DNA of 64,000 nt from assembly GCA_902615855.1 (NCBI GenBank), contig CACMQN010000004.1, positions 61,672-125,671 on the forward strand. Direction: 5' to 3'. This document shows positions 1,650-62,925 of the stretch, piece by piece. The position numbers and the translations under genes were made by a program. This stretch comes from an uncultured Candidatus Actinomarina sp. GTDB lineage: Bacteria > Actinomycetota > Acidimicrobiia > Actinomarinales > Actinomarinaceae. The first letter of the stretch is position 1. Each line of letters starts with the position of its first letter. The notes under the pieces are model-generated. The model searched no databases, was not told the DNA's origin, and saw nothing but the letters and a program-made list of their open reading frames with translations.

Positions 1650-2429
1650 GTTATTTTCTTTTGAGATTTCAATTGAACGGTTAGTCGCTGCTTTAATTGC
1701 TTCAAATATTATTTTATCAAAAGAGTTTTCAGACAGCGAATTGATACCCGCCTCAGTAGTGCCATTTGGTGATTTAATGTTATCAACAATTTCATCAAAA
1801 CTGATCTCACCTAATAAAGAAGGTAAAGATAATATTAACTGTTCAACAATAGCTTTGGCTTCCTCTTTTTCCATTCCGAGTTTTTCAGCAGCATCAACAA
1901 TTTTTGAAGACATTTCAAAATACCAAGCTGGTCCACTTCCGTAAATTGCGGTAATAATATCAAATAAATTTTCAGGATATTCAGCAGTTTTTCCGAGTTC
2001 ATTAAGGCATTTAATGAATCCGAGGTAATCATCTTCATAATTTTTTGTATAAGGAATAAAACCGTTATTATTTTTTATTGACAGATTAGGCATCAATCTT
2101 AATATTTTGTTCTTAAAAATATTTTCAAAGTGGGTTATTTTTAATCCAGCAAGAGCGGTCACTATTAAAACGTCAGGTGATATCAGTTCCTTGTTTGTTT
2201 CAATAAATTCATTTAAATTATTTGGTTTTATGCATAACAACAGAACTCCCTCATCTAGCTGTCCTAAGATTGATTTAATTTCTTGTTTGCCACTAAATGA
2301 ATCAAAAATATCCTTGTTTGATTCATATAAATATAAGTTTGGTCCTTCTGAAATAGAACTAAACCCACCTAGAAAAGACTTCCCAAGATTGCCAATTCCA
2401 ACTATATGAACGTCAATTTCTGCCATCAT
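1641..2429 (-). CDS. proC: Pyrroline-5-carboxylate reductase
   Basis: 262 aa. N-terminal Rossmann motif VGIGNLGKS and a ProC-like dimerisation C-terminus (GSGPAWYF, TTEAGI). Overlaps the upstream Fe-S gene by 9 nt. Confidence 0.85.
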   Translation of the reverse strand: MMAEIDVHIVGIGNLGKSFLGGFSSISEGPNLYLYESNKDIFDSFSGKQEIKSILGQLDEGVLLLCIKPNNLNEFIETNKELISPDVLIVTALAGLKITHFENIFKNKILRLMPNLSIKNNNGFIPYTKNYEDDYLGFIKCLNELGKTAEYPENLFDIITAIYGSGPAWYFEMSSKIVDAAEKLGMEKEEAKAIVEQLILSLPSLLGEISFDEIVDNIKSPNGTTEAGINSLSENSFDKIIFEAIKAATNRSIEISKENNNE

Positions 2430-2530
2430 TTAATATTATCAAGCACAGAAAATATCTAAAAATAGTCATATTTAAAGAAATTTAAATAAAAGTTTGCATA
2501 AAAAACGAAATATATTATATTGATATTAAA

Positions 2531-2550
2531 TCTAAGTAAATATACTTAGA
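2531..2550 (+). promoter_or_regulatory. Perfect 7-6-7 inverted repeat TCTAAGT-AAATAT-ACTTAGA upstream of the dnaK operon; candidate HspR operator (HAIR-like: AGT-N6-ACT core)
   Basis: Seen directly in the sequence, 38-57 nt upstream of the first operon gene (2588). HspR is encoded at the end of the same operon. The canonical HAIR is CTTGAGT-N7-ACTCAAG, so this would be a divergent version. Confidence 0.4.
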
Positions 2551-2587
2551 TAATATAAGCAAATAAGGTAAGATTGAAAGGAAATAA

Positions 2588-2791
2588 ATGAGCGGAACAT
2601 TAACAGCCTCAACAGTTAAGCCTGGGGTTAGAAGATCAAAAAAATATACATCTGGAAGGGTATGCGAATTTGATTCATGTGAGACAGTAATCAGTGTCTA
2701 CAACAGAAAGAAATATTGTTTTTTACATGCTCCTATCTCCTATCCAAGAGTGCGTGGACATCTACCAAGAGAACAAGAACCTCAAATTTAA
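2588..2791 (+). CDS. Small basic zinc-ribbon protein (C-x4-C-x12-C-x2-H), paralog A; first gene of the dnaK operon
   Basis: 67 aa. It lies 18 nt upstream of dnaK on the same strand. About 55% identical to the ORF at 23962-24156 (shared GRVC..SC.T.S.YN...CF.HAP..YPRVRG). No family recognised. Confidence 0.6.
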   Translation: MSGTLTASTVKPGVRRSKKYTSGRVCEFDSCETVISVYNRKKYCFLHAPISYPRVRGHLPREQEPQI

Positions 2792-2809
2792 TTTAGAAAG
2801 GAAAAATTC

Positions 2810-4615
2810 ATGGGTAAAGCCGTAGGAATCGACCTAGGAACTACAAATAGTGTTGTTGCAGTCTTAGAAGGTGGAGAGCCAACTGTTATTACTAATGCTG
2901 AAGGTAACAGAACAACTCCCTCAATAGTTGCATTTAAAAATACCGAAGTTTTAGTTGGTGAGTTGGCAAAAAGACAGGCAATTACCAATCCAGACAACAC
3001 AGTTAGATCAATTAAAAGAGAAATAGGAACAAACTGGAAACAAACATTTGAAGACAAAGAATATACACCTCAAGAAGTCTCAGCAAGAATTTTACAAAAG
3101 TTAAAAAGAGATGCCGAGAGTTATATTGGAGAAGATGTTACTGAAGCAGTTATAACAGTTCCAGCATATTTTAATGATGCAGAAAGACAAGCTACTAAAG
3201 AAGCAGGTCAGATTGCTGGTCTTAACGTTCTAAGAATAATTAACGAACCAACGGCTGCATCACTAGCTTATGGTTTAGAAAATAATGAAGATCAAAAAAT
3301 ATTAGTCTATGACTTAGGTGGTGGAACTTTTGATGTCTCAGTACTAGAAATTTCTGAAGGAGTTTTTGAGGTAAAGTCAACATCCGGCGACTCAAAACTT
3401 GGAGGAGACGACTGGGATGAAAGAGTAATGAATTGGTTAGTAGATAAATTTAAATCATCTACAGGAATCGACATATCATCTGACAAAATGGCGATGCAAA
3501 GAATTAAAGAAGGGGCTGAAAAGGCAAAAATAGAACTATCCTCTACAAGTGAAACAGAGATAAATTTGCCTTTTATTACTGCAGATGATTCTGGTCCTCA
3601 ACATTTATTGGAAAAATTATCTAGAAGTGAATTTGAAAAAATTACTGACGATCTGGTTGAAAGAACTAAAGATCCAGTAACAAATGCCATCAAAGATGCG
3701 GGTCTGTCTATTTCTGATATAGAGCATGTTATTTTAGTTGGTGGATCAACAAGAATGCCATCCATACAGGCTATGGTTAAAACTTTAACCGGTAAAGATC
3801 CTCATAAAGGCGTTAATCCTGACGAGGTTGTTGCTTCTGGTGCAGCTATTCAAGCTGGAGTTCTTAAGGGTGACGTTAAAGACGTATTGCTCTTAGATGT
3901 TACACCGTTAACACTTGGTGTTGAGACTAAAGGTGGGATCATGACGAAGATGATTGAAAGAAACACAACTATTCCTACAAAAAGATCAGAGACATTCACG
4001 ACTGCTGAAGATGGCCAAACCCAAGTAGAAATACATGTTTTACAAGGTGAAAGAGAAATGGCTTCGGGAAATAAATCTCTTGGAAAATTTACACTTACTG
4101 ATATCCCTTCAGCAAAACAAGGCATACCTCAAATTGAGGTAACTTTTGATATTGATGCAAATGGAATTGTCAATGTAAATGCTAAGGATTTAGGAACAGG
4201 TAAAGAACAAGCAATTACTATCACAGGGGGTACCGCCCTAGAAGATGATGAAATTGAAAGAATGATTAAAGATGCTGAAACTCATGCTAATGAAGATGCA
4301 AAAAAGAAAGAGCAAGTTGAAACACGAAATTTAGGCGAGGGATTGATTACATCTACAGAGAAAATGCTTGAAGAAAATAAAGACAAGGCAACGGAAGAAG
4401 AAATTCAATCTATAAATGAGAGTAAGGAAAAACTCTCAAAGATACTCGAAAATGATGAAGCTTCAACTGAAGAAATGCGAAATGGTATTGATGAACTAAC
4501 CAAGTCAAGTCAATCATTTGCTGAAAAACTATATGCTGAAACTCAACAACAGAAGGCTCAAGATGAAAATGAAGAAGATGTAGTTGAGGGTGAAGTTGTA
4601 GAAGAAGATGAGTAA
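2810..4615 (+). CDS. dnaK: Molecular chaperone DnaK (Hsp70)
   Basis: 601 aa. Hallmark motifs [28 protein letters not shown] and a C-terminal acidic tail. Confidence 0.97.
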
Positions 4616-5081
4616 TAAAGACGAGGCGTCTTCGTCTGAAGAATTAAAACAAAATCAAGAAACAAACACTGTAACCCTTGATGAGTATGAAAAAATCAAG
4701 GACGACTATCTCAGACTGGCTGCGGATTTCGAAAATTTTAAAAAGAGAAATGAAAAAGAAAAAGAGTCTGCTTCATTTAATTTTGTAGCTTTATTCGTAA
4801 ATAGTTTATTTCCATTAATTGATAATTTTGATATCGCCATAAAACAAGACAACAACCCAAAAGAGATTGAATCGTTATACAAAACTTTGCAAGACTTTAT
4901 GGACAATCTTAACATAGTTGAAGTCCCTGGTGTTGGAGAGGCATTTGATCCAAATTTCCATGAAGCAGTTGAGCATTCAGGGGATGGAGACACTCAAACC
5001 ATTGAAGAAGTTTTACGAAAAGGTTATACCTTAGAAGACAAGCTGCTAAGACCAGCAATGGTAAGAGTTAAAAGTGAATAG
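4608..5081 (+). CDS. grpE: Nucleotide exchange factor GrpE
   Basis: 157 aa. It overlaps the dnaK stop, sits in the conserved operon position, and has a GrpE-like coiled-coil plus C-terminal beta domain. Confidence 0.85.
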
Positions 5082-6159
5082 AGACTGGTTAGAGAAAGAT
5101 TTTTATGCCGTCCTTGGTGTAAACCAAGATGCGAGCACAGATGAAATAAAAAAAGCCTATAAAAAACTAGCAAGGGAAAATCATCCAGATTTAAATCCAG
5201 ATGATAAGGAAGCTGAAAAAAGATTTAAAGACATTTCTGAAGCAAGCTCTGTTTTAACAGATATAAACAAAAGGCAAGAATATGACCAAGTAAGAGCAAT
5301 GGGTGCTTCTGGTTTTTCTGGTTTTAGCGGGGGTACAAACTTTAATGTTGAAGATCTAGGAGATATATTTGGTAATTTTGGAGATATATTTGGTTTTGGA
5401 GGTACGTCAAGAAGAAAAGGTCAAAGCTATCAAACAAAGATAAATGTATCATTTAATGACTCTGCATCTGGATTAGATACAAATGTTCCTCTAAGAAAAG
5501 AGGTTGTCTGCGAAGATTGTAGAGGAAACGGATCAGAAAATGGTAATTCGTATCACGTTTGTAACATATGTAAGGGATCAGGTCAAACAGCATCAAATCA
5601 AGGTTTCTTTTCCTTTTCACAGCCATGTCAAGCATGTCGGGGTCAAGGAAATGTCATCGACAAACAATGTAAACGTTGTAGGGCAAATGGATTTGTTATC
5701 AAAAATGAAACAATTAAGGTCAAAGTTCCCGCAGGTGTTGATAATGGTACTGTCATAAGACTAAGAGGTTATGGTGGTCCTGGAAGCGGAGGAGGTCCTG
5801 ATGGTGATCTTCTAGTTCAAGTTAATATTGAGCCTCACAAGTTTTTTAAGAGAAATGGTAGCGATCTGATACTCGAGATACCTCTTTTGTTTACAGAGGC
5901 TGCTCTTGGCACTGTAATAAAAATTCCAACTCTGGATGGTTCCGTAACATTAAAAGTTCCCTCAGGAACAGAAAGTGGTAAAACATTTAAAATTAGAGGT
6001 GAAGGAATCAAACCGCAAGGTAGACGAGCAGGAGATTTATATGTAAAAACTACAATTGTTGCTCCAACAAATCTCTCTAGGTCAGCAAAAAAACATTTAG
6101 AAAAATATAAAGAACAATTTGAATCTGGAGACTCGCCAAGGGACTACCTCTATGAGTAG
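5074..6159 (+). CDS. dnaJ: Chaperone DnaJ
   Basis: J-domain with HPD (ENHPDLN), a G/F-rich linker, and four CxxCxGxG zinc-finger repeats (CEDCRGNG, CNICKGSG, CQACRGQG, CKRCRANG). Confidence 0.95.
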   Translation: MNRDWLEKDFYAVLGVNQDASTDEIKKAYKKLARENHPDLNPDDKEAEKRFKDISEASSVLTDINKRQEYDQVRAMGASGFSGFSGGTNFNVEDLGDIFGNFGDIFGFGGTSRRKGQSYQTKINVSFNDSASGLDTNVPLRKEVVCEDCRGNGSENGNSYHVCNICKGSGQTASNQGFFSFSQPCQACRGQGNVIDKQCKRCRANGFVIKNETIKVKVPAGVDNGTVIRLRGYGGPGSGGGPDGDLLVQVNIEPHKFFKRNGSDLILEIPLLFTEAALGTVIKIPTLDGSVTLKVPSGTESGKTFKIRGEGIKPQGRRAGDLYVKTTIVAPTNLSRSAKKHLEKYKEQFESGDSPRDYLYE

Positions 6160-6538
6160 CGAAAGTTCTAAAGCGATATATTTTATTTCTGTGGCGTCAA
6201 CGCTGTCTGGGATTCACCCCCAAACTATAAGAACATATGAAGAAAAAGGTTTGATAAAGCCTTACCGAACTGGTGGTGGAACAAGGCGCTACTCACAAGA
6301 AGACATAGACAAACTTATACAGATTCAAAATCTTTCACAAAGAGGTATTAACTTAGATGGCATAAAGATAATTTATGAAATGAGAGACAGAATCTCTGAT
6401 CTGCAAATTGAGATTGAATCTCTTAAGGAAGATATTAAATTAGAAAAAAACCAAAGAAGCCAATCTGAAAAAGAAATTCACAAAAGCTATAAGAATGAAA
6501 TTGTTAAGAAGTCAAATAAAGATCTTAGAAAAAATTAG
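6152..6538 (+). CDS. hspR: MerR-family heat-shock repressor HspR
   Basis: MerR HTH (IYFISVASTLSGIHPQTIRTYEEKGLIKP), terminal gene of the dnaK-grpE-dnaJ operon as in Actinobacteria. Start chosen at the internal ATG 6152 (MSSESSK), overlapping the dnaJ stop by 8 nt. The track ORF begins at 6119. Confidence 0.85.
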   Translation: MSSESSKAIYFISVASTLSGIHPQTIRTYEEKGLIKPYRTGGGTRRYSQEDIDKLIQIQNLSQRGINLDGIKIIYEMRDRISDLQIEIESLKEDIKLEKNQRSQSEKEIHKSYKNEIVKKSNKDLRKN

Positions 6539-22889: not shown

Positions 22890-23624
22890 CTAAATTATAT
22901 TTCTGAATATAACTACCAATCCTGAGATTATTGAAAAGTATGTTACGGCTTTTGAAATTGCATTGTCAGAGACATCTGAAAACAGTAAGGAAGATATTTT
23001 TAATCCTATAGCAACTGGAATCGCAAGATATAAAAATAAGACTATGTGATCTCTATAAATCTCACCACTAAAAAGCAAAAGACTTAGTGTTATCATTATT
23101 CCAAACGTAAAAACAGCGTTTAACGATGGTCTGAACTCCTTACCAGAAGCTCCTCGATATAAAATTGCAATAGGAGGGCCCCCTACTCCTGCAATCATTG
23201 CAAATATTCCAGATAATGTTCCAGCGATCCATGACGAATTATTATTCCTATTCACAGTCCAGTTAAATAATGTTGCAATACCTGCAAAAAGCACAATTGC
23301 TCCTACGCTTATTGAAAGTAGTTTCTCGTTCAAATTAATAAGGAGCAATAAACCCAAAGGGCCACCAATAATTCTTCCTAGGAATAAGAATTTAAACGGT
23401 TTCCAATCTACTTCTTTTTTTTCACGTTGATATATACGAAAAGCCATAGGCAAGGCAAGTAAACTTAGAATTTGTGGCACAAGTAGTGGCTCAATTTGGA
23501 CAAGTATTGGTGAAGAAATAACAGCAAAGCCAAAACCTAATATTCCTTGGATCGCTGCACTTACAAATAGAAGTATTGAAATAAATATAAGCTCAACAAG
23601 GGAAAGATCAAATGGATATGTCAA
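22890..23624 (-). CDS. TauE/SafE (TSUP, DUF81) family anion exporter
   Basis: 244 aa, about 8 TM helices, glycine-rich TSUP-type repeats. TTG start overlaps the stop of the upstream SelW-like gene (TTGA). Confidence 0.75.
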   Translation of the reverse strand: MTYPFDLSLVELIFISILLFVSAAIQGILGFGFAVISSPILVQIEPLLVPQILSLLALPMAFRIYQREKKEVDWKPFKFLFLGRIIGGPLGLLLLINLNEKLLSISVGAIVLFAGIATLFNWTVNRNNNSSWIAGTLSGIFAMIAGVGGPPIAILYRGASGKEFRPSLNAVFTFGIMITLSLLLFSGEIYRDHIVLFLYLAIPVAIGLKISSLLFSDVSDNAISKAVTYFSIISGLVVIFRNII

Positions 23625-23857
23625 CTAAGTGCTTTTTCCATTAACTCTAATATTTCACCTTCGTTTGTATGCCTTCCAGTTTCAAGTTTTGAATAAATAA
23701 GTTCACCATTTAAATACAATTCAAAAACACCACCTGTTCCTGGAATAAGATCAATCGATTTTACTTCTTTTCCGTATTTTTCAAGTATGTCTTCTACCGT
23801 ACTAACTGCACGGGGTGTATAGTTTCAAACAATACAAAATTCTAGTTTGATTTCCAT
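23621..23857 (-). CDS. SelW/Rdx-family redox protein, probable selenoprotein (in-frame TGA = Sec at codon 11, CxxU motif)
   Basis: Hand translation gives MEIKLEFCIV-U-NYTPRAVSTVEDILEKYGKEVKSIDLIPGTGGVFELYLNGELIYSKLETGRHTNEGEILELMEKALS. It aligns to the SelW CxxU...G.GG.FEV..G.LI.SK pattern. The TGA (23825-23827) sits exactly at the Sec position. A 6-bp hairpin CCGUGC-AGUUA-GUACGG starts 11 nt after the UGA, the typical bacterial SECIS spacing. It is missed by the ORF track because of the TGA. Confidence 0.7.
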
Positions 23858-23892: not shown

Positions 23893-23908
23893 TTGCAAAA
23901 ACTTGCAG
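23893..23908 (+). promoter_or_regulatory. TTGCAA-N4-TTGCAG hexamer repeat (Nur/Fur-family-box-like) in the promoter region of the zinc-ribbon/copZ/copA operon
   Basis: Seen in sequence. 16 of 17 nt match AAAAAGTTTGCAAWAAC, which is also present upstream of cbiMN (59968-59992). Confidence 0.3.
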
Positions 23909-23930
23909 GTTTTTCAAATGTTTGTTAAGC

Positions 23931-23948
23931 TTGTGAATATATTCACAA
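23931..23948 (+). promoter_or_regulatory. Perfect 18-bp palindrome TTGTGAATATATTCACAA (TGTGA-N6-TCACA, CRP/FNR-family consensus), 14 nt upstream of the operon ATG
   Basis: Seen in sequence; matches the CRP/GlxR half-site consensus exactly. Confidence 0.4.
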
Positions 23949-23961
23949 AGTGGGGAATTAA

Positions 23962-24156
23962 ATGACTGACGGATTAAAAGCAAGTCAAATTAAAGGTGGT
24001 ATAAGACCTTCAAAAAGTTTTGACCAGGGCAGAGTTTGTAAAGAAGAATCTTGCAATACTCAACTAAGTATCTATAACAAAAGAGAGCACTGCTTTAACC
24101 ATGCTCCTGTTAAATACCCAAGAGTTAGAGGAAGAATTCTTCAAGAAACTGCATAA
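23962..24156 (+). CDS. Small basic zinc-ribbon protein (C-x4-C-x12-C-x2-H), paralog B; first gene of the copZ-copA operon
   Basis: 64 aa. It is a paralogue of 2588-2791 with the same cysteine/histidine spacing and the conserved C-terminal YPRVRG. Confidence 0.6.
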   Translation: MTDGLKASQIKGGIRPSKSFDQGRVCKEESCNTQLSIYNKREHCFNHAPVKYPRVRGRILQETA

Positions 24157-24207: not shown

Positions 24208-24411
24208 ATGGCTACCAAATTTAACGTTCCCGAAATAAGTTGTGATCATTGTAAAAGTACGATTGTAAACACTTTGTCAGGTGTTGAAAATATTGAATCA
24301 GTTGATGTTGACGTTCAGACAAAAAATGTAACACTGGAGTCCTCAGAAGAGATAAATTTAGATCTTGTTAAATCACTTCTTGATGAACAAGGCTATACCG
24401 TTGTCAGCTGA
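24208..24411 (+). CDS. copZ: Copper chaperone CopZ (heavy-metal-associated domain)
   Basis: 67 aa with the ferredoxin-like HMA fold and an N-terminal SCDHC metal-binding loop. Confidence 0.85.
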   Translation: MATKFNVPEISCDHCKSTIVNTLSGVENIESVDVDVQTKNVTLESSEEINLDLVKSLLDEQGYTVVS

Positions 24412-26443
24412 GACAAAAACGTTAGTTTTATCTGTTGAAGGAATGACCTGTGCAGCATGTGCTGCAAGAATAGAGAGAGTTCTAACAAAAGAAAAATCTG
24501 TCAAAGATGTAGTTGTAAACTTCCCCCTAAAAAAAGCAATCTTAGAAGTTAACACCGAAGATAATAATTCGGATGAATATATTCAACGAATTAGATCAAT
24601 TGGATATTCAGCACGAGAAGAAATAGCTGAGGAGAAAAAAAGTAATACAAGAAAATTTCTTACTCCGTTTCTTGCTCTAATACTTACACTTAGTATCAAC
24701 CCACTCATTGGGGCTGATCAAGGTCTCGCCGCATTAGGAGTAGGTTCACTAATAATTTTTGTTTTTGGTAGAAAATTTCACGTATCTGCTTTAAAAAATA
24801 TAAAAAAACTTAATTTCAATATGGATACATTAATCTCTATTGGTAGTCTCTCCTCTTTCGCCATTGGAATTTTGCCAAATAATGGAGAATTAATGTACTT
24901 AGAAACAGGAGGATTTATAATTAGCTTCATTCTCCTTGGTAAGACTATAGAAGATATTTCAATTAAGTCATCTATTTCAGTATCAGATTCCATAATCGAA
25001 AGTATTCCCAAAGATGTAAATGTTTACGAAAACCAAATAATTGTTCGCATGCCTTTAAATCAAATTGAAATTGGTGATGTCATCATAGTTAAGAAAGGCG
25101 AAATCATTCCTCTTGATGGTGTAATCATACGTGGTAGTTCTGAAGTTGATGAAAGTGTAATCTCTGGTGAATCCGAACCTCTTATAAAAAAAGAGGGTGA
25201 TGAAATTGTATCTGGTTCAATTAATCTTGGTGATGATATTGAAGTTGAAGTAGTAAAAAAAGAGGGAGAAACAACATTAAACCACATTGAAAAATTGATT
25301 TTGAAAGCCCAAACAAGTAAGCCAGAAGTTCAAGATCTCGTAGATAAAATAACAAATATCTTTGTTCCTTCTATTTTGATTTTAAGTTTTGCAAATATGA
25401 TATTTAAATTATTTGTATTAGAAAATGATTTTTCAGAGACAATCAGTTCAACAATTGCAATTCTTGTTGTTGCCTGCCCTTGTGCCCTAGGCCTTGCAAC
25501 TCCTATCGTATTATTTAGGACTGCCTCAGTTTCAAATCGTAATGGCTTTATTTTTAAAAATTTTGACTATCTTCAAAGATTCAAAAATTTAGACATAATA
25601 GTTTTTGATAAAACTGGAACTCTTACATCTGGTATTTTCAAAATAGAAAGCATCTCAGACTCAAAAGGTAAAATTGTTGATGATGAAGTATTGAGAGTGC
25701 TTGCGTCTGTTGAACAAAAATCAAACCATCCTATTGCTAAAAGTATACTTTTAGAATCGGAAATAAAAAATTTAAGTCTCTTCCCTGTAGATAATTTTAT
25801 TGAAACACCAGGAATTGGTGTTAGTGGAGTTGTTGAAAACAAAAAAGTTTCTGTTTTCAGGTCGCAAGATGATTTAAAAGGGGATCTTGAATTAATAATT
25901 GATAATGAGGAATTTAAGGTAAAGCTAGTAGAAGATAAAACTGTAAATAAAGATATCATTAAAGATCTTTCAAAAGATTATGAAATTGAAATTTTATCAG
26001 GAGACAAAACTGAAAAAGTCCAAGAAATTGGAAATGATTTAAATATCAAAAATGTGTTAGGCAATCAGTCCCCAGAAGATAAATTAAAATATATTCAAGA
26101 AAAACAGATGGATAAAACGGTAGGTTTCATTGGCGATGGAATTAATGATTCACCTGCACTTAAACAAGCAAATGTAAGTTTATCCTTTTCTCAAAGCACA
26201 CAAATCGCGCAAAGTGTTAGCGACATTATTATTTTTAAAGGGGGCCTTGAAATATTAAACAAAATTTTTAATATTTCAAAAAATTCAAACAAAAGAATTA
26301 TTCAAAATTTATTTTTTGCCTTTATATATAACATAATCATGATTCCAATTGCTGTAAGTGGGAGTATTGTTCCAAGTATGGCTGCTTTAGCTATGGCTTT
26401 ATCAAGTTTATCTGTAGTTTTAAACTCATCCAGAAAACTCTAA
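24401..26443 (+). CDS. copA: Copper-translocating P1B-type ATPase
   Basis: HMA domain GMTCAAC, TM CPC motif (ACPCALG), DKTGTLT phosphorylation site, GDGINDSPAL hinge. Start taken at TTG 24401, overlapping the copZ stop. The track begins at TTG 24365. Confidence 0.92.
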   Translation: MSAETKTLVLSVEGMTCAACAARIERVLTKEKSVKDVVVNFPLKKAILEVNTEDNNSDEYIQRIRSIGYSAREEIAEEKKSNTRKFLTPFLALILTLSINPLIGADQGLAALGVGSLIIFVFGRKFHVSALKNIKKLNFNMDTLISIGSLSSFAIGILPNNGELMYLETGGFIISFILLGKTIEDISIKSSISVSDSIIESIPKDVNVYENQIIVRMPLNQIEIGDVIIVKKGEIIPLDGVIIRGSSEVDESVISGESEPLIKKEGDEIVSGSINLGDDIEVEVVKKEGETTLNHIEKLILKAQTSKPEVQDLVDKITNIFVPSILILSFANMIFKLFVLENDFSETISSTIAILVVACPCALGLATPIVLFRTASVSNRNGFIFKNFDYLQRFKNLDIIVFDKTGTLTSGIFKIESISDSKGKIVDDEVLRVLASVEQKSNHPIAKSILLESEIKNLSLFPVDNFIETPGIGVSGVVENKKVSVFRSQDDLKGDLELIIDNEEFKVKLVEDKTVNKDIIKDLSKDYEIEILSGDKTEKVQEIGNDLNIKNVLGNQSPEDKLKYIQEKQMDKTVGFIGDGINDSPALKQANVSLSFSQSTQIAQSVSDIIIFKGGLEILNKIFNISKNSNKRIIQNLFFAFIYNIIMIPIAVSGSIVPSMAALAMALSSLSVVLNSSRKL

Positions 26444-41413: not shown

Positions 41414-41454
41414 ACGCTTATGATAATTGTCACTTTTGAAATAATCTATTAAAG

Positions 41455-41528
<74 letters not shown>

Positions 41529-41529
41529 T

Positions 41530-41621
<92 letters not shown>

Positions 41622-41628
41622 AAGCTTG

Positions 41629-41714
41629 CGGAGGGAGTGGGATTCGAACCCACGGTATGGAATACATACATTAGTTTTCAAGACTAACGCCTTCGTCCGC
41701 TCGGCCATCCCTCC
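41629..41714 (-). tRNA. tRNA-Ser (anticodon TGA)
   Basis: Acceptor GGAGGGA/TCCCTCC, anticodon loop CUUGAAA, long variable arm. Confidence 0.85.
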
Positions 41715-41731
41715 AAACTAAAATCTTTTTG

Positions 41732-41820
41732 CGGAGGGAGAGGGATTCGAACCCTCGAAGGGGATAAACCCTTACACGCTTTCCAAGCGTGCGCACTAGG
41801 CCAGACTATGCGATCCCTCC
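41732..41820 (-). tRNA. tRNA-Ser (anticodon GGA)
   Basis: Acceptor GGAGGGA/TCCCTCC, anticodon loop UUGGAAA, long variable arm. Confidence 0.85.
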
Positions 41821-41847
41821 ATGAAAAGACCTAAAGTATTAGTTTAA

Positions 41848-42306
41848 TTACCTCTTACTTTCAAAGAAAGAGGATAATATAACTTCAGATTCATGGGATA
41901 AAATATTATCTCTTATCTCAACAAAGTGATTTAGTCTTTTATCCTGTGGGATATTGTAAAGTGTGTATGCTGCACCCGATTTTAGATTTGGTGAGCTGTA
42001 TAAAAGAGTTTTGATTCTTGCGTTGACTATTGCTCCTGCACACATGGGATCAGGCTCTAATGTAATGGCAAGAGTGGTGTTTTCTAATCTCCAAGTTTTC
42101 AAGATCTGAGAGGCTTCTTTAATCACCAAAATCTCAGCATGTGCTGTTGGATCTTGATCAATTTCACGCCTGTTGTGTGCCTTTGTAATTAATTTATCAT
42201 CATTATCAAAAAGTGCAGCTCCGATTGGTACTTCATCTATCTCTAGTGCTTTCTTTGCCTCTGCTAAAGCTACTTGCATTTTTTCTATATCAGATTTATA
42301 TTTCAT
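41848..42306 (-). CDS. tadA: tRNA-specific adenosine deaminase (TadA-like CDA-fold deaminase), with Asp replacing the first Cys of the PCxxC zinc motif
   Basis: HAE zinc/catalytic motif (TAHAEILVI) and LEPDPMCAGA where TadA normally has LEPCxMCAGA. The minus strand reads gat ccc atg tgt. Its substrate tRNA-Arg(ACG) lies 320 nt away. Confidence 0.75.
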   Translation of the reverse strand: MKYKSDIEKMQVALAEAKKALEIDEVPIGAALFDNDDKLITKAHNRREIDQDPTAHAEILVIKEASQILKTWRLENTTLAITLEPDPMCAGAIVNARIKTLLYSSPNLKSGAAYTLYNIPQDKRLNHFVEIRDNILSHESEVILSSFFESKR

Positions 42307-42323
42307 ATCCCTAAACTTATTCT

Positions 42324-42412
42324 AGGAGGGATCGCATAGTCCGGTCTAGTGCGCGACACTCGAAATGTCGTGAGTCTTTATAGGCTCCGTGGGTTCGAAT
42401 CCCACTCCCTCC
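42324..42412 (+). tRNA. tRNA-Ser (anticodon CGA)
   Basis: Acceptor GGAGGGA/TCCCTCC, anticodon loop CUCGAAA, long variable arm, GGTTCGAATCC T-loop. Confidence 0.85.
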
Positions 42413-42456
42413 GCTTTAAACTTCAGTTTCTAAAACTCTAGTATTAATATTGAAAA

Positions 42457-49299: not shown

Positions 49300-49320
49300 A
49301 ATATTAAGGTTACCCTAATG

Positions 49321-49393
49321 TGGAGATGATGGGACTTGAACCCACGACCCCCTGCTTGCAAAGCAGGTGCTCTTCCAGCTGAGCTACATCCCC
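49321..49393 (-). tRNA. tRNA-Ala (anticodon TGC)
   Basis: Acceptor GGGGATG with G3:U70, anticodon loop UUUGCAA, GGTTCAAGTCC T-loop. Confidence 0.85.
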
Positions 49394-49482
49394 TCGCATC
49401 ATATATTATGCCCTGAATTTGCTCGTAAATGAAAAAATTTTAGAAATATTTCGTATTCATTACTAATGTAGATAGAGCGAAA

Positions 49483-49557
49483 GGGCCTATAGCTCAGCCT
49501 GGTTAGAGCGCATCCCTGATAAGGATGAGGTCGTTAGTTCAAATCTAACTAGGCCCA
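49483..49557 (+). tRNA. tRNA-Ile (anticodon GAT)
   Basis: Acceptor GGGCCTA/TAGGCCC, anticodon loop CUGAUAA, GGTTCAAATC T-loop. Confidence 0.85.
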
Positions 49558-49654
49558 CAATTGTCATAAGGGTTTTTCAAAAACTACTGATGCATAATGC
49601 AAGTTTTAGTTGGAATCCCCTCTTTTCCCCCACCTTTTTAAATAAAATATAAAT

Positions 49655-51640: not shown

Positions 51641-51651
51641 TGTTAAAGCAT

Positions 51652-51745
51652 AAAGAGAAGGTTAAGACCTCGGCAACCTGGATGGCTATCCAAGGTGCTA
51701 GAAAATGTGGCAGAAATGCAACTAAATAGTCAAAATCCTTCTCCA
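51652..51745 (+). promoter_or_regulatory. SAM riboswitch (SAM-I/SAM-IV clan, compact variant) in the metY-metX leader
   Basis: P1 GAGAAGG...CCTTCTC, the CGGCAACC junction, a P4-like hairpin GGATGG-CTATCC, and the AAGGUGCUA segment. These match the 3' core of SAM-I (cf. yitJ GCAACC..hairpin..AAGGUGCUAAAUCC). The 3' P1 strand CCTTCTCC can alternatively pair with the SD GGAGAA 6 nt downstream. Confidence 0.6.
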
Positions 51746-62762: not shown

Positions 62763-62824
62763 TATTGAGATGTTAATAATAAAATATAGATAGGTTGTTT
62801 ATTCAAAATTTAAACTAATATATA

Positions 62825-62925
62825 ACTAACGGGAGCAGTAGAGCTGAGAGGGTTAAAAACCGACCGTATGAACCTGTTAGGTAATTCTAACGAAGGGATA
62901 TTCGGTACTCTTATCCCATTTACGA
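62825..62925 (+). promoter_or_regulatory. TPP (THI-box) riboswitch
   Basis: GGGAGC...GCTGAGA...ACCG...GAACCTG-TTAGGTAAT-CTAACGAAGGGA matches the THI element consensus (CUGAGA, GAACCUGAUCYGGnUAAUnCCnGCGnAGGGA). Confidence 0.8.

Follow-up and report, generated by a model that had tools for sequence, protein, structure and literature searches.

Two paralogous Cys3His-motif genes ahead of the dnaK and copper-efflux operons of Candidatus Actinomarina belong to an unnamed protein family of Acidimicrobiia and phages

Among marine actinobacteria, Candidatus Actinomarina is one of the most abundant groups. A stretch of 64,000 nucleotides (nt) from an uncultured member of this group (assembly GCA_902615855.1, contig CACMQN010000004.1, positions 61,672 to 125,671), here called the window, raises the question of why two different stress operons, dnaK-grpE-dnaJ-hspR and copZ-copA, are both preceded by a gene for a small protein of the same type. 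An earlier inspection of the DNA without database searches, here referred to as the sequence-only reading, described these two open reading frames (ORFs), which we call ORF A and ORF B, as paralogues that each lead a stress operon behind a perfect palindrome. We found that ORF A and ORF B are members of an unnamed and uncharacterised family of Acidimicrobiia and phages, and we predict from gene neighbourhoods and promoter motifs that in most Acidimicrobiia this family belongs to the SigH/SigR regulon of thiol-oxidative and heat stress.

The coordinates and spacing of the two genes were as originally described, with ORF A ending 18 nt before the ATG codon of dnaK at position 2810 and ORF B ending 51 nt before the ATG codon of copZ at position 24208 (Table 1). 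The two proteins were aligned by BLASTP without gaps, with identical residues at 31 of 62 positions (50%), 74% positives and an E-value of 3e-25, which upheld their paralogy, although not the earlier identity estimate of about 55%. The core GRVC-x4-C-x12-CFxHAP-x2-YPRVRG that had been claimed for both was found to be exact in each, and the Cys3His metal-site signature and the basic tails were likewise supported for both proteins. A six-frame scan of the window identified the core motif at ORF A and ORF B only; a degenerate DNA pattern of the motif matched the same two sites and had no matches in 100 shuffled sequences. In comparisons with their orthologues, 21 to 35 codons differed synonymously and 3 to 10 non-synonymously (for example 25 vs 10, 21 vs 3 and 35 vs 5), and a single pair had values of 24 vs 14. 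The large excess of synonymous differences identified both as genuine protein-coding genes, and both are under strong purifying selection.

An exhaustive phmmer search with ORF B as the query recovered 375 representative clusters (at 50% identity) with E-values of 1e-3 or less, nearly all of which contained proteins of 60 to 80 residues. The family proteins are basic, about 65 residues long and have a median isoelectric point (pI) of 10.2. In an alignment of 103 members, the columns M1, R24, C26, C31, S36, N39, C44, H47, P53, R56, and G57 were invariant, and R15, T33, Y38, and P49 were nearly so. The conserved module can be written as [RK]-P-S-[KR]-x-[FY]-x2-G-R-V-C-x4-C-x-T-x-L-S-x-Y-N-x4-C-x2-H-x-P-x3-P-R-x-R-G, and the invariant module as R-x-C-x4-C-x4-S-x-Y-N-x4-C-x2-H-x5-P-x2-R-G. 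All members were named "hypothetical protein" in their source records, which were from Acidimicrobiia or metagenome-assembled genomes (MAGs) of Actinomycetota, and the exact or near-exact matches of ORF A and ORF B in public databases were listed as "hypothetical protein [Candidatus Actinomarina sp.]". The exact sequence of ORF B was present in at least 1000 public contigs. It was also noted that some members of 103 to 148 amino acids formed a two-domain subfamily (representatives P0064, P0167, P0122, P0170, P0182, P0185, P0085, and P0075), in which the knuckle is followed by an additional C-terminal module, C-x2-C-x14-25-(V)H-x8-10-C-E, for which no Pfam match was obtained.

The sequence-only reading had been unable to place the two proteins in a named family, and profile and structure searches led to the same result. 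Neither ORF A nor ORF B matched any Pfam or NCBIfam model at threshold, no threshold match to Pfam was obtained for any of the 103 members or for the family consensus, and neither a sequence search nor a profile search of the PDB identified a related sequence, the profile search at E-values up to 10 giving one non-ribosomal chain. An AlphaFold2 model computed with the family alignment had a mean predicted local distance difference test (pLDDT) score of 73, with values of about 84 for the core residues 20-50 and less confident tails. It consisted of one beta-hairpin (residues 20-25 and 34-36) plus the knuckle, and no fold match was found by Foldseek against the PDB. The earlier label of "zinc ribbon" is a reasonable description of these proteins, but with a hairpin and a knuckle that match no fold it is only approximate.

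The only Pfam similarities that recurred among the members were below threshold and lay over the knuckle; with E-values of 1 or less, they were to PF19114 (EsV-1-7 cysteine-rich motif) in 48 of the 103 members, to PF18721 (CxC6) in 46, and to PF24906 (WRKY19 zinc finger) in 25, the gathering cut-offs of these three models being 25 to 27.5 bits. For PF19114, the scores were 13.4 bits for ORF B and 17.4 bits for the consensus (residues 26-49, E-value 0.004), as compared to a gathering cut-off of 25 bits, and the best E-value of any of the 103 members was 2.7e-4. These eukaryotic and giant-virus motifs have the same C-x4-C-x(12-16)-C-x2-H signature as the family, but the scores are sub-threshold and homology is unproven. 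The spacing of the EsV-1-7 motif is C-x4-C-x16-C-x2-H. The middle loop of the family, with 12 residues in all 103 sequences, is 4 residues shorter, whereas the order of the ligands and the spacings within the knuckles are the same.

Table 1. Coordinates of the two small genes, their upstream elements and the downstream operon genes in the window
Feature	Coordinates	Strand	Basis
Putative sigma-70-like promoter of ORF A, TTTGCA-N17-TATATT	2493..2521	+	Consensus scan
Perfect palindrome ATCTAAGT-N6-ACTTAGAT, candidate HspR operator, where transcription of ORF A is predicted to start	2530..2551		Unique in the window
ORF A, 67-residue basic protein with predicted Cys3His zinc knuckle, dnaK-linked paralogue	2588..2791	+	ORF call, alignment, AlphaFold2 model
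dnaK	2810..4615	+	HSP70 Pfam family in orthologous loci
grpE	4608..5081	+	Pfam families in orthologous loci
dnaJ	5074..6159	+	Pfam families in orthologous loci
hspR, repressor of the MerR family, with an uncertain start codon	~6119..6538	+	MerR Pfam families in orthologous loci
Putative sigma-70-like promoter of ORF B, TTGCAG-N17-TAAGCT	23903..23931	+	Read from the sequence; not listed by the consensus scan
Perfect 18-bp palindrome TTGTGAATATATTCACAA that overlies the predicted ORF B transcription start	23931..23948		Unique in the window
ORF B, 64-residue basic protein with predicted Cys3His zinc knuckle, cop-linked paralogue	23962..24156	+	ORF call, alignment, tree
copZ, HMA copper chaperone	24208..24411	+	blastp to HMA-family (PF00403) genes in loci L001 and L014
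copA, P-type Cu ATPase, longest ORF	24365..26443	+	blastp to HMA and E1-E2_ATPase genes in related loci

Genomic contexts and predicted stress regulation across the Acidimicrobiia

To place the two genes among their relatives, the degenerate DNA pattern was scanned against 185,579 species genomes, which yielded at least 120 loci (numbered here with the prefix L); Pfam calls computed beforehand, together with blastp comparisons to reference proteins, served to annotate the neighbouring genes, and all context counts given below are among the matches listed. Nearly all loci were from Acidimicrobiia, Acidimicrobiales, Microthrix, Actinomarina, or unclassified Actinomycetota. Among the matches listed, the closest loci were from single-cell genomes of Candidatus Actinomarina and OCS155, and the guanine plus cytosine (GC) content of the window itself was 32.8%. 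A few loci carried other labels: L072 (NYXO01000052.1), which is nearly identical to the cop region of the window, was deposited under a "Methanobacteriota archaeon" MAG, the exact sequence of ORF B was also named "Euryarchaeota archaeon" at NCBI, and further family loci were labelled Acidobacteriota or Kiloniellales. The archaeal-labelled contigs are probably Actinomarina contigs that were mis-binned into marine archaeal MAGs.

The commonest context, which lay outside the view of the sequence-only reading, was directly 3' of sigH-rshA. At least about 50 of these sigma-linked loci contained genes for an extracytoplasmic function (ECF) sigma factor and a zf-HC2 anti-sigma factor, followed by the small gene, (a gene for a 117-amino-acid protein), Zincin_2, tilS, hpt, and ftsH. 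The sigma factor scored 263 bits against the SigH_actino model TIGR02947 (cut-off 251.6), and the anti-sigma factor scored 64.4 bits against the RsrA model TIGR03988 (cut-off 62.5). Second, at least about 30 cop-linked loci contained the gene for peptidase M3, the small gene, then csoR, a MerR-like gene or no gene, and finally copZ, copA, and PAC2; the adjacency to the cop genes is class-wide. Third, at least 9 dnaK-linked loci, all with GC contents of 0.32-0.36, had the gene order small gene, dnaK, grpE, dnaJ, hspR. Finally, in at least 8 ECH-linked loci the small gene was located between an enoyl-CoA hydratase gene and convergent genes, and several loci presented scattered contexts, such as an acetyl-CoA synthetase gene, the small gene and genes for helix-turn-helix (HTH) plus B12-binding regulators. 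Three loci of the latter kind, L053, L109, and L138, encoded, after the small gene, a single protein that was judged by eye to be an excisionase/MerR-type HTH fused to a B12-binding domain (LitR/CarH-like), a context that again puts the small gene beside a transcription regulator. Candidate "Rosetta stone" fusions of the small protein to RshA were rejected, as the long ORFs of some sigma-linked loci had over-extended starts in GC-rich DNA and were without the HxxxCxxC motif.

The sequences upstream of the small genes were searched for promoters of the SigH type, for which the experimental consensus in M. tuberculosis is GGAAYR-N17-18-GTT (PMC4803200). In the roughly 200 nt before the small gene, the motif GGAA[CT]-N17-19-GTT was present in 36 of 49 sigma-linked, 12 of 29 cop-linked and all 6 ECH-linked loci, as well as in 5 of 9 probable sigma-linked and 5 of 23 unclassified loci, and in none of 6 dnaK-linked loci. 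In total, 64 of 122 loci had the motif, as compared to a background rate of 1.1% (79 of 6888 equally sized windows taken from these loci). The motif was not found upstream of either gene in the window. The distance from the motif to the start codon was fixed. In the cop-linked loci, GGAAC-N18-GTT preceded a 5' untranslated region (UTR) of roughly 30 nt that contained a conserved AGGAGGGCC ribosome-binding site. One of the sigma-linked clades had the sequence GGAAT-N18-GTT with an ATG codon only 9-11 nt later, which suggests that these mRNAs are leaderless. Together with the sigH-rshA and cop contexts, these promoters make the family a predicted member of the thiol-oxidative and heat-stress regulon. 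Among the strongly SigH-dependent genes of M. tuberculosis are dnaK and the gene for a small zinc protein, Rv0991c (PMC4803200).

The cop-linked loci of the GC-rich relatives differed in organisation from the window. There, the small gene was followed, in order, by a conserved hairpin whose loop is C-rich (e.g. GGGACAGGTCCTCTCCCCCTCCCCGTCCC), a strong intrinsic terminator, and the regulator gene or copZ. Three arrangements were observed downstream of the terminator: csoR together with a GC-rich operator of typical form, ACCCCACCcccGGTGGGGT; a MerR-like gene accompanied by a dyad of the CCTTCC…GGAAGG type; and copZ without a regulator gene before it. Of the 30 cop-linked loci, 18 contained the C-rich motif, as did 3 of the 50 sigma-linked and none of the 9 dnaK-linked loci. 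In the Actinomarina locus L051, both the hairpin and the terminator were still located between the small gene and copZ.

The hairpin itself has the form GGGAC-AGGTCCTCTCCCCCTCCCC-GTCCC, with a loop that resembles an anti-Shine-Dalgarno sequence, and lies ahead of the terminator, 20-60 nt past the end of the cop-linked gene; it was seen in L055, L028, L107, L030, L092, L126, L001, L049, and others, and in an AT-rich form in L051. One possibility is that it pairs with the gene's own conserved AGGAGGGCC ribosome-binding site, another that it represents a 6C-like small RNA derived from the 3' UTR; a comparison with Rfam gave no match at the gathering score.

Operon structure and upstream palindromes in Actinomarina

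The position at the head of an operon, which had been proposed for both small genes, was recovered in the genome of the window and in its close relatives, but not in the GC-rich members, where the small gene forms a separate unit. All 9 of the dnaK-linked loci were from low-GC Actinomarina or Actinomarinales, and none of the GC-rich members listed preceded dnaK. The gene content described for the two operons was corroborated by the Pfam families of the orthologous loci for dnaK-grpE-dnaJ-hspR and by blastp matches for copZ-copA. As judged by eye, the true start of copA is likely to be a TTG codon at about position 24401, overlapping the stop codon of copZ. In a site scan, neither the gap between ORF A and dnaK nor that between ORF B and copZ contained a terminator-like site. 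We regard co-transcription of ORF A with dnaK as very likely and that of ORF B with copZA as plausible. As csoR and the terminator of the relatives are absent here, ORF B, copZ and copA probably form one transcript.

In a neighbour-joining tree, ORF B was placed within the cop-linked clade, and ORF A clustered with the other dnaK-linked copies of Actinomarina, beside a third Actinomarina paralogue and miscellaneous members, although the deep branches are unreliable because the alignment is short. At least two family copies have been kept, with two in the window and two on contigs of the single-cell genome AG-333-G23. The third paralogue, of 67 amino acids, is located in OCS155 AG-333-G23 (L062; QBZE01000003.1, positions 1761-1964, minus strand), where it overlaps the start of a gene for 137 amino acids by 4 nt and lies next to a gene for a 504-amino-acid protein with a segment that resembles an HTH by eye. 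Its neighbours were all unannotated proteins and provided no functional clue; the surroundings may represent a variable region.

A perfect palindrome had been reported in front of each gene, and we recovered both, each of them unique in the window and with arms that were retained in the orthologous Actinomarina loci. Since the arms are retained while the surrounding sequence diverges, the palindromes are not there by chance. On the dnaK side, the arms were perfect in L034, L052, L069, and L095 and had one arm mismatch in L036 and L017, the sequence of the spacer was variable, and the -10 hexamer TATATT, as read from the sequences, was at a fixed distance of 8 nt before the palindrome in the Actinomarina orthologues. 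When compared to the Streptomyces consensus for the HspR-associated inverted repeat (HAIR), CTTGAGT-N7-ACTCAAG, the palindrome TCTAAGT-N6-ACTTAGA was identical at 4 of 7 positions per arm and kept the AGT…ACT core, and its spacer was 6 nt long (7 nt in L017) rather than 7 nt. Degeneracy is a known property of HAIR-like sites (PMC6102357). The placement, at the promoter of an operon that itself encodes hspR, is that expected of an HspR operator and is conserved in the Actinomarina loci. Given the degeneracy of HAIR-like sites and the presence of hspR in the operon, HspR is the most economical binder of this palindrome, a candidate HspR operator.

On the cop side, the promoter of ORF B abuts the palindrome TGTGAATATATTCACA, and its layout, TTGCAt-N17-TAAnCT, was conserved in L047, L059, and L072, whereas the -35 hexamers were looser and the spacer less certain in L051 and L104. 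The palindrome was identical in five Actinomarina loci, each of which had a single copy, consistently about 30 nt ahead of the small gene. It was retained in front of the small gene also in L051, in which the terminator separates the small gene from copZ. The occurrence of a single site per locus, even in a locus that is split by a terminator, assigns this second palindrome to the small gene rather than to copZ. The palindrome contains TGTGA-N6-TCACA, the consensus of the CRP/FNR type. The idea of a global regulator with a regulon-wide site gained no support, as only one such site was present in the 64 kb even with one mismatch allowed; this count has no bearing on a binder of the CRP type.

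The genomes of Actinomarinales are about 1.1 Mb in size with a GC content of 32-34%, two sigma factors, no two-component systems, and 29-48 paralogous genes, and their operons are unusually long with very short intergenic spacers (PMC7771536). Given such operons and spacers, the layout in which a small gene leads two stress operons is most simply a product of genome streamlining, which it would reflect to a large extent. In the scenario that we propose, the SigH-type promoters would have been lost in Actinomarina and replaced by sigma-70-type promoters with repressor sites. ORF A would have become the first cistron of dnaK-grpE-dnaJ-hspR, with a loosely HAIR-like palindrome at the transcription start that is probably bound by HspR. 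ORF B would have kept its ancestral place beside copZA, the units having fused once csoR and the terminator were lost, and the ORF B-copZ-copA transcript would start at a promoter that is overlapped by a dedicated 18-bp operator. The downstream parts of both systems are of textbook type: csoR-copZA forms the downstream operon in the relatives, with a CsoR-type GC-rich operator before csoR, and the dnaK operon ends with hspR. What differs is the absence of csoR at the Actinomarina locus and the extra conserved small gene 5' of both the dnaK and the cop operon. Even if the small protein were a simple accessory that binds nucleic acid, the two operons would illustrate how streamlining fuses transcription units and exchanges control by a sigma factor for control by a repressor and its operator.

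Phage copies and the possible activity of the small proteins

The DNA pattern also matched 33 viral contigs in IMG/VR, which encoded distinct subtypes of the protein, e.g. MIEGTRKAKVRKSKTFAKGRVC…, and no cellular reference neighbours were found beside these copies. Both contigs tested against PHROGs were confirmed to be bona fide phages. In one of them (L163) the gene order was DnaB-like helicase, small zinc-finger gene, a gene for a 111-amino-acid protein, DNA primase, and portal, and the other (L148) encoded portal and major head proteins. Of the viral contigs with family genes, most had GC contents of 33-37%, and one (L156) also carried WhiB; both low GC and WhiB have been reported for phages of Actinomarinales (PMC7771536). 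The carriers are predicted to be phages of low-GC actinobacteria. The phage proteins matched only phrog_10853, of unknown function, and that weakly, and a tblastn search of GenBank phage records gave no match at an E-value of 1e-3 or less. That a phage copy should lie in an early or replication module speaks for a role with nucleic acids or in transcription, and against metal buffering or the holding of client proteins.

The reading that we prefer combines the stress-regulon family, its rewiring in Actinomarina, and a zinc knuckle that acts on nucleic acid or the transcription machinery. As a whole its prospects of being right or wrong are in our judgement evenly balanced; we have high confidence in the descriptive part, and offer the activity part, a zinc knuckle with basic flanks in contact with nucleic acid or the transcription apparatus, as a tentative proposal that may well prove incorrect. 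The protein would fold around a Zn(Cys3His) knuckle, and the basic flanks, with [RK]-P-S-[KR]-x-[FY] on the N-terminal side and P-R-x-R-G on the C-terminal side, would bind nucleic acid or the transcription machinery. It would be made together with each stress module and modulate gene expression in proteotoxic, thiol or copper stress, and the thiolate-rich metal site could make its activity sensitive to oxidants or Cu(I). A role with nucleic acids or in transcription is supported by the 33 viral contigs, the copy in a replication module, the basic composition, and the sub-threshold likeness to EsV-1-7, CxC6, and WRKY19.

Several observations weigh on the other side. Zinc binding, nucleic-acid binding and stress induction are each inferred, and the association with dnaK and with the SigH regulon would suit a chaperone role like that of Ruc (Rv0991c) equally well. 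The dnaK-side palindrome agrees with HAIR at just 4 of 7 positions in each arm, and its spacer is one base short. In the second sigma-linked clade, the GGAACT… match lies within the 3' end of rshA, with a T at the sixth position, and was given less weight since it may partly reflect coding conservation. Co-transcription was judged from spacing and missing terminator-like sites only, and the 51-nt gap between ORF B and copZ contains a promoter-like sequence, TTAACA-N18-TATTAT. Furthermore, the absence of sigH, rshA, and csoR, which supports the rewiring, and that of a peptidase M3 gene were observed for the 64-kb window.

Among known systems, the family would work most like the small accessory proteins with a metal site in actinobacterial stress regulons, namely Ruc, the WhiB-like proteins and RbpA, and it fails the defining sequence features of each of these that was tested. 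The WhiB-like proteins are similarly small, Cys-rich and metal-binding, with a basic tail, restriction to one bacterial group, several paralogues, links to stress regulators, and copies in actinophages. However, they are defined by a C-x(n)-C-x2-C-x5-C [4Fe-4S] motif and a G[VI]WGG turn, neither of which was present in the family alignment, and there was no match to the Pfam Whib model, such that a WhiB-like mode of action would be analogous only by inference. A bolder version of our preferred reading, which we regard as unlikely, is that the family represents a new class of zinc-finger regulators in bacteria and phages, perhaps a prokaryotic counterpart of the EsV-1-7 type, that would dock in a WhiB-like manner on RNA polymerase, a sigma factor or DNA, sense thiol or copper stress, and, at the dnaK and copZA operons of Actinomarina, stand in for SigH-RshA and CsoR circuits that would be missing there.

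The main rival to an activity on nucleic acid, improbable to a similar degree as the bolder version, is a redox switch of the Ruc/Hsp33 type, in which the Zn(Cys3His) site would keep the reduced protein inactive, and an oxidant or Cu(I) would displace the zinc and thereby generate a small holdase or co-chaperone that hands clients to DnaK. Such an activity would explain the production of the protein from the dnaK operon and from SigH-type promoters, and Ruc of M. tuberculosis is indeed a small zinc-thiolate protein that is induced by SigH, activated by oxidation, aids refolding by DnaKJE, and co-purifies with DnaK (PMC7448276; PMC4803200). The three invariant Cys and one His, the less confident tails of the model, and the copy inside the dnaK operon would all suit a protein of this kind, and copper is a thiol-reactive, proteotoxic stress. 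However, Ruc is a four-Cys zinc ribbon with a hydrophilic, disordered C-terminus that makes up more than half of the protein, whereas the family has a Cys3His site with a C-x4-C first knuckle and only 10-20 residues after it, including the conserved P-R-x-R-G. We detected no sequence relation to Ruc or to any Pfam zinc-ribbon family. The tails of 10-22 residues are short, strongly basic and conserved, which is more suggestive of a specific partner than of promiscuous client binding. Moreover, the linkage to dnaK is confined to one lineage, and the phage copies in a replication module are hard to reconcile with a holdase.

Slightly less probable again is the explanation that the small proteins are metal or redox autoregulators that bind, in a sequence-specific manner, the palindromes before their own genes, such that ORF B would have replaced CsoR as the copper-responsive repressor of copZA, and ORF A would assist or replace HspR. 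The absence of csoR between ORF B and copZ, where it is present in GC-rich relatives, is in line with this explanation, as is the 18-bp palindrome over the predicted start, which always travels with the small gene, even past the terminator split. No regulator gene was noticed by eye among the ORF translations beside the cop genes of the window, and the Cys/His site could bind Cu(I). Yet the cop-linked orthologues mostly coexist with CsoR or a MerR-like regulator and have SigH-type promoters and no conserved palindrome, and the palindrome on the dnaK side is alternatively explained by HspR, encoded in the same operon. Perfect palindromes of 16-18 bp are typical of dimeric helix-turn-helix proteins, and nothing indicates that the small protein dimerises. 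No match to PF02583 (Trns_repr_metal), the Pfam family of CsoR, was obtained in the family, and it is genuine csoR genes that adjoin the small gene in the relatives.

We find it very hard to believe that the proteins are ribosome-associated, as stress-specific paralogues or mimics of uS14 type Z or bL36. Their size, pI and metal knuckle with basic tails do resemble those of small ribosomal proteins, and the pattern C-x4-S-x-Y-x5-C-x2-[CH] with R-x-P-K-F upstream recalls uS14 type Z, as compared by eye. The identity with uS14 type Z was rejected, as hhalign of the family profile against a uS14-Z sequence gave a probability of 0.3%, and the profile search of the PDB yielded no ribosomal chain. 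In M. tuberculosis, rpmE is one of the SigH-dependent genes (PMC4803200), but no match to the Ribosomal_S14 or L36 models of Pfam was seen in the 103 members, and Foldseek identified no ribosomal chain in the PDB. A passive zinc or copper buffer or metallochaperone made with copZA is just as implausible, despite the invariant Cys3His site and the class-wide adjacency to copZA, since there is a single metal site, the non-ligand residues R24, S36, N39, P53, R56, and G57 are also invariant, the commonest context is sigH-rshA and not metal genes, phage copies lie in a replication module, and a dedicated copper chaperone, CopZ, is already present.

The retention of so tiny a gene despite streamlining, with one copy inside the essential dnaK operon, makes the family of interest beyond the window. 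It is apparently a core and unannotated member of the SigH/RsrA regulon across the Acidimicrobiia, has been acquired by phages, and could reveal a missing component of stress regulation. To judge from the literature searched, the link to the regulon is new, whereas the downstream operons and regulators were already known. With 65 residues and one metal site, the protein is a well-defined target, and it possibly offers a first biochemical handle on a type of zinc finger whose eukaryotic look-alikes are also uncharacterised.

Other features of the window

An Rdx/SelW-like gene at positions 23624-23857 (minus strand), divergent from ORF B, reads MEIKLEFCIV-TGA-NYTPRAVSTVEDILEK…, with an in-frame TGA in a CxxU motif, and was missed by the ORF list because of this stop codon. 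The corresponding sequence, EFC(R/I)(T/V)-TGA-NYT(G/P)RAVS, was also found in the Acidimicrobiia locus L001 (61% GC; positions 2552-2815, minus strand), where the gene caller had kept the part after the TGA only, and the in-frame TGA was conserved in L047 and L072 as well. From this conservation, we consider that the TGA is probably a selenocysteine codon; there was only a weak hairpin 3' of it (z-score 0.19), and no tRNA-Sec or sel genes were seen in the window.

Four tRNA-Ser genes and a tRNA-Arg gene were clustered at positions 41454-42414. The genes for tRNA-Ala(TGC) and tRNA-Ile(GAT), which are usually found in rRNA spacers, were located at positions 49320-49558 in divergent orientation and 90 nt apart, and no rRNA was detected in the window. 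Two riboswitches were identified on the plus strand, one of the SAM-I/IV type at positions 51643-51735, with a score of 73.8 bits, and one of the TPP type at positions 62819-62915, with a score of 54.3 bits that is exactly the gathering score.

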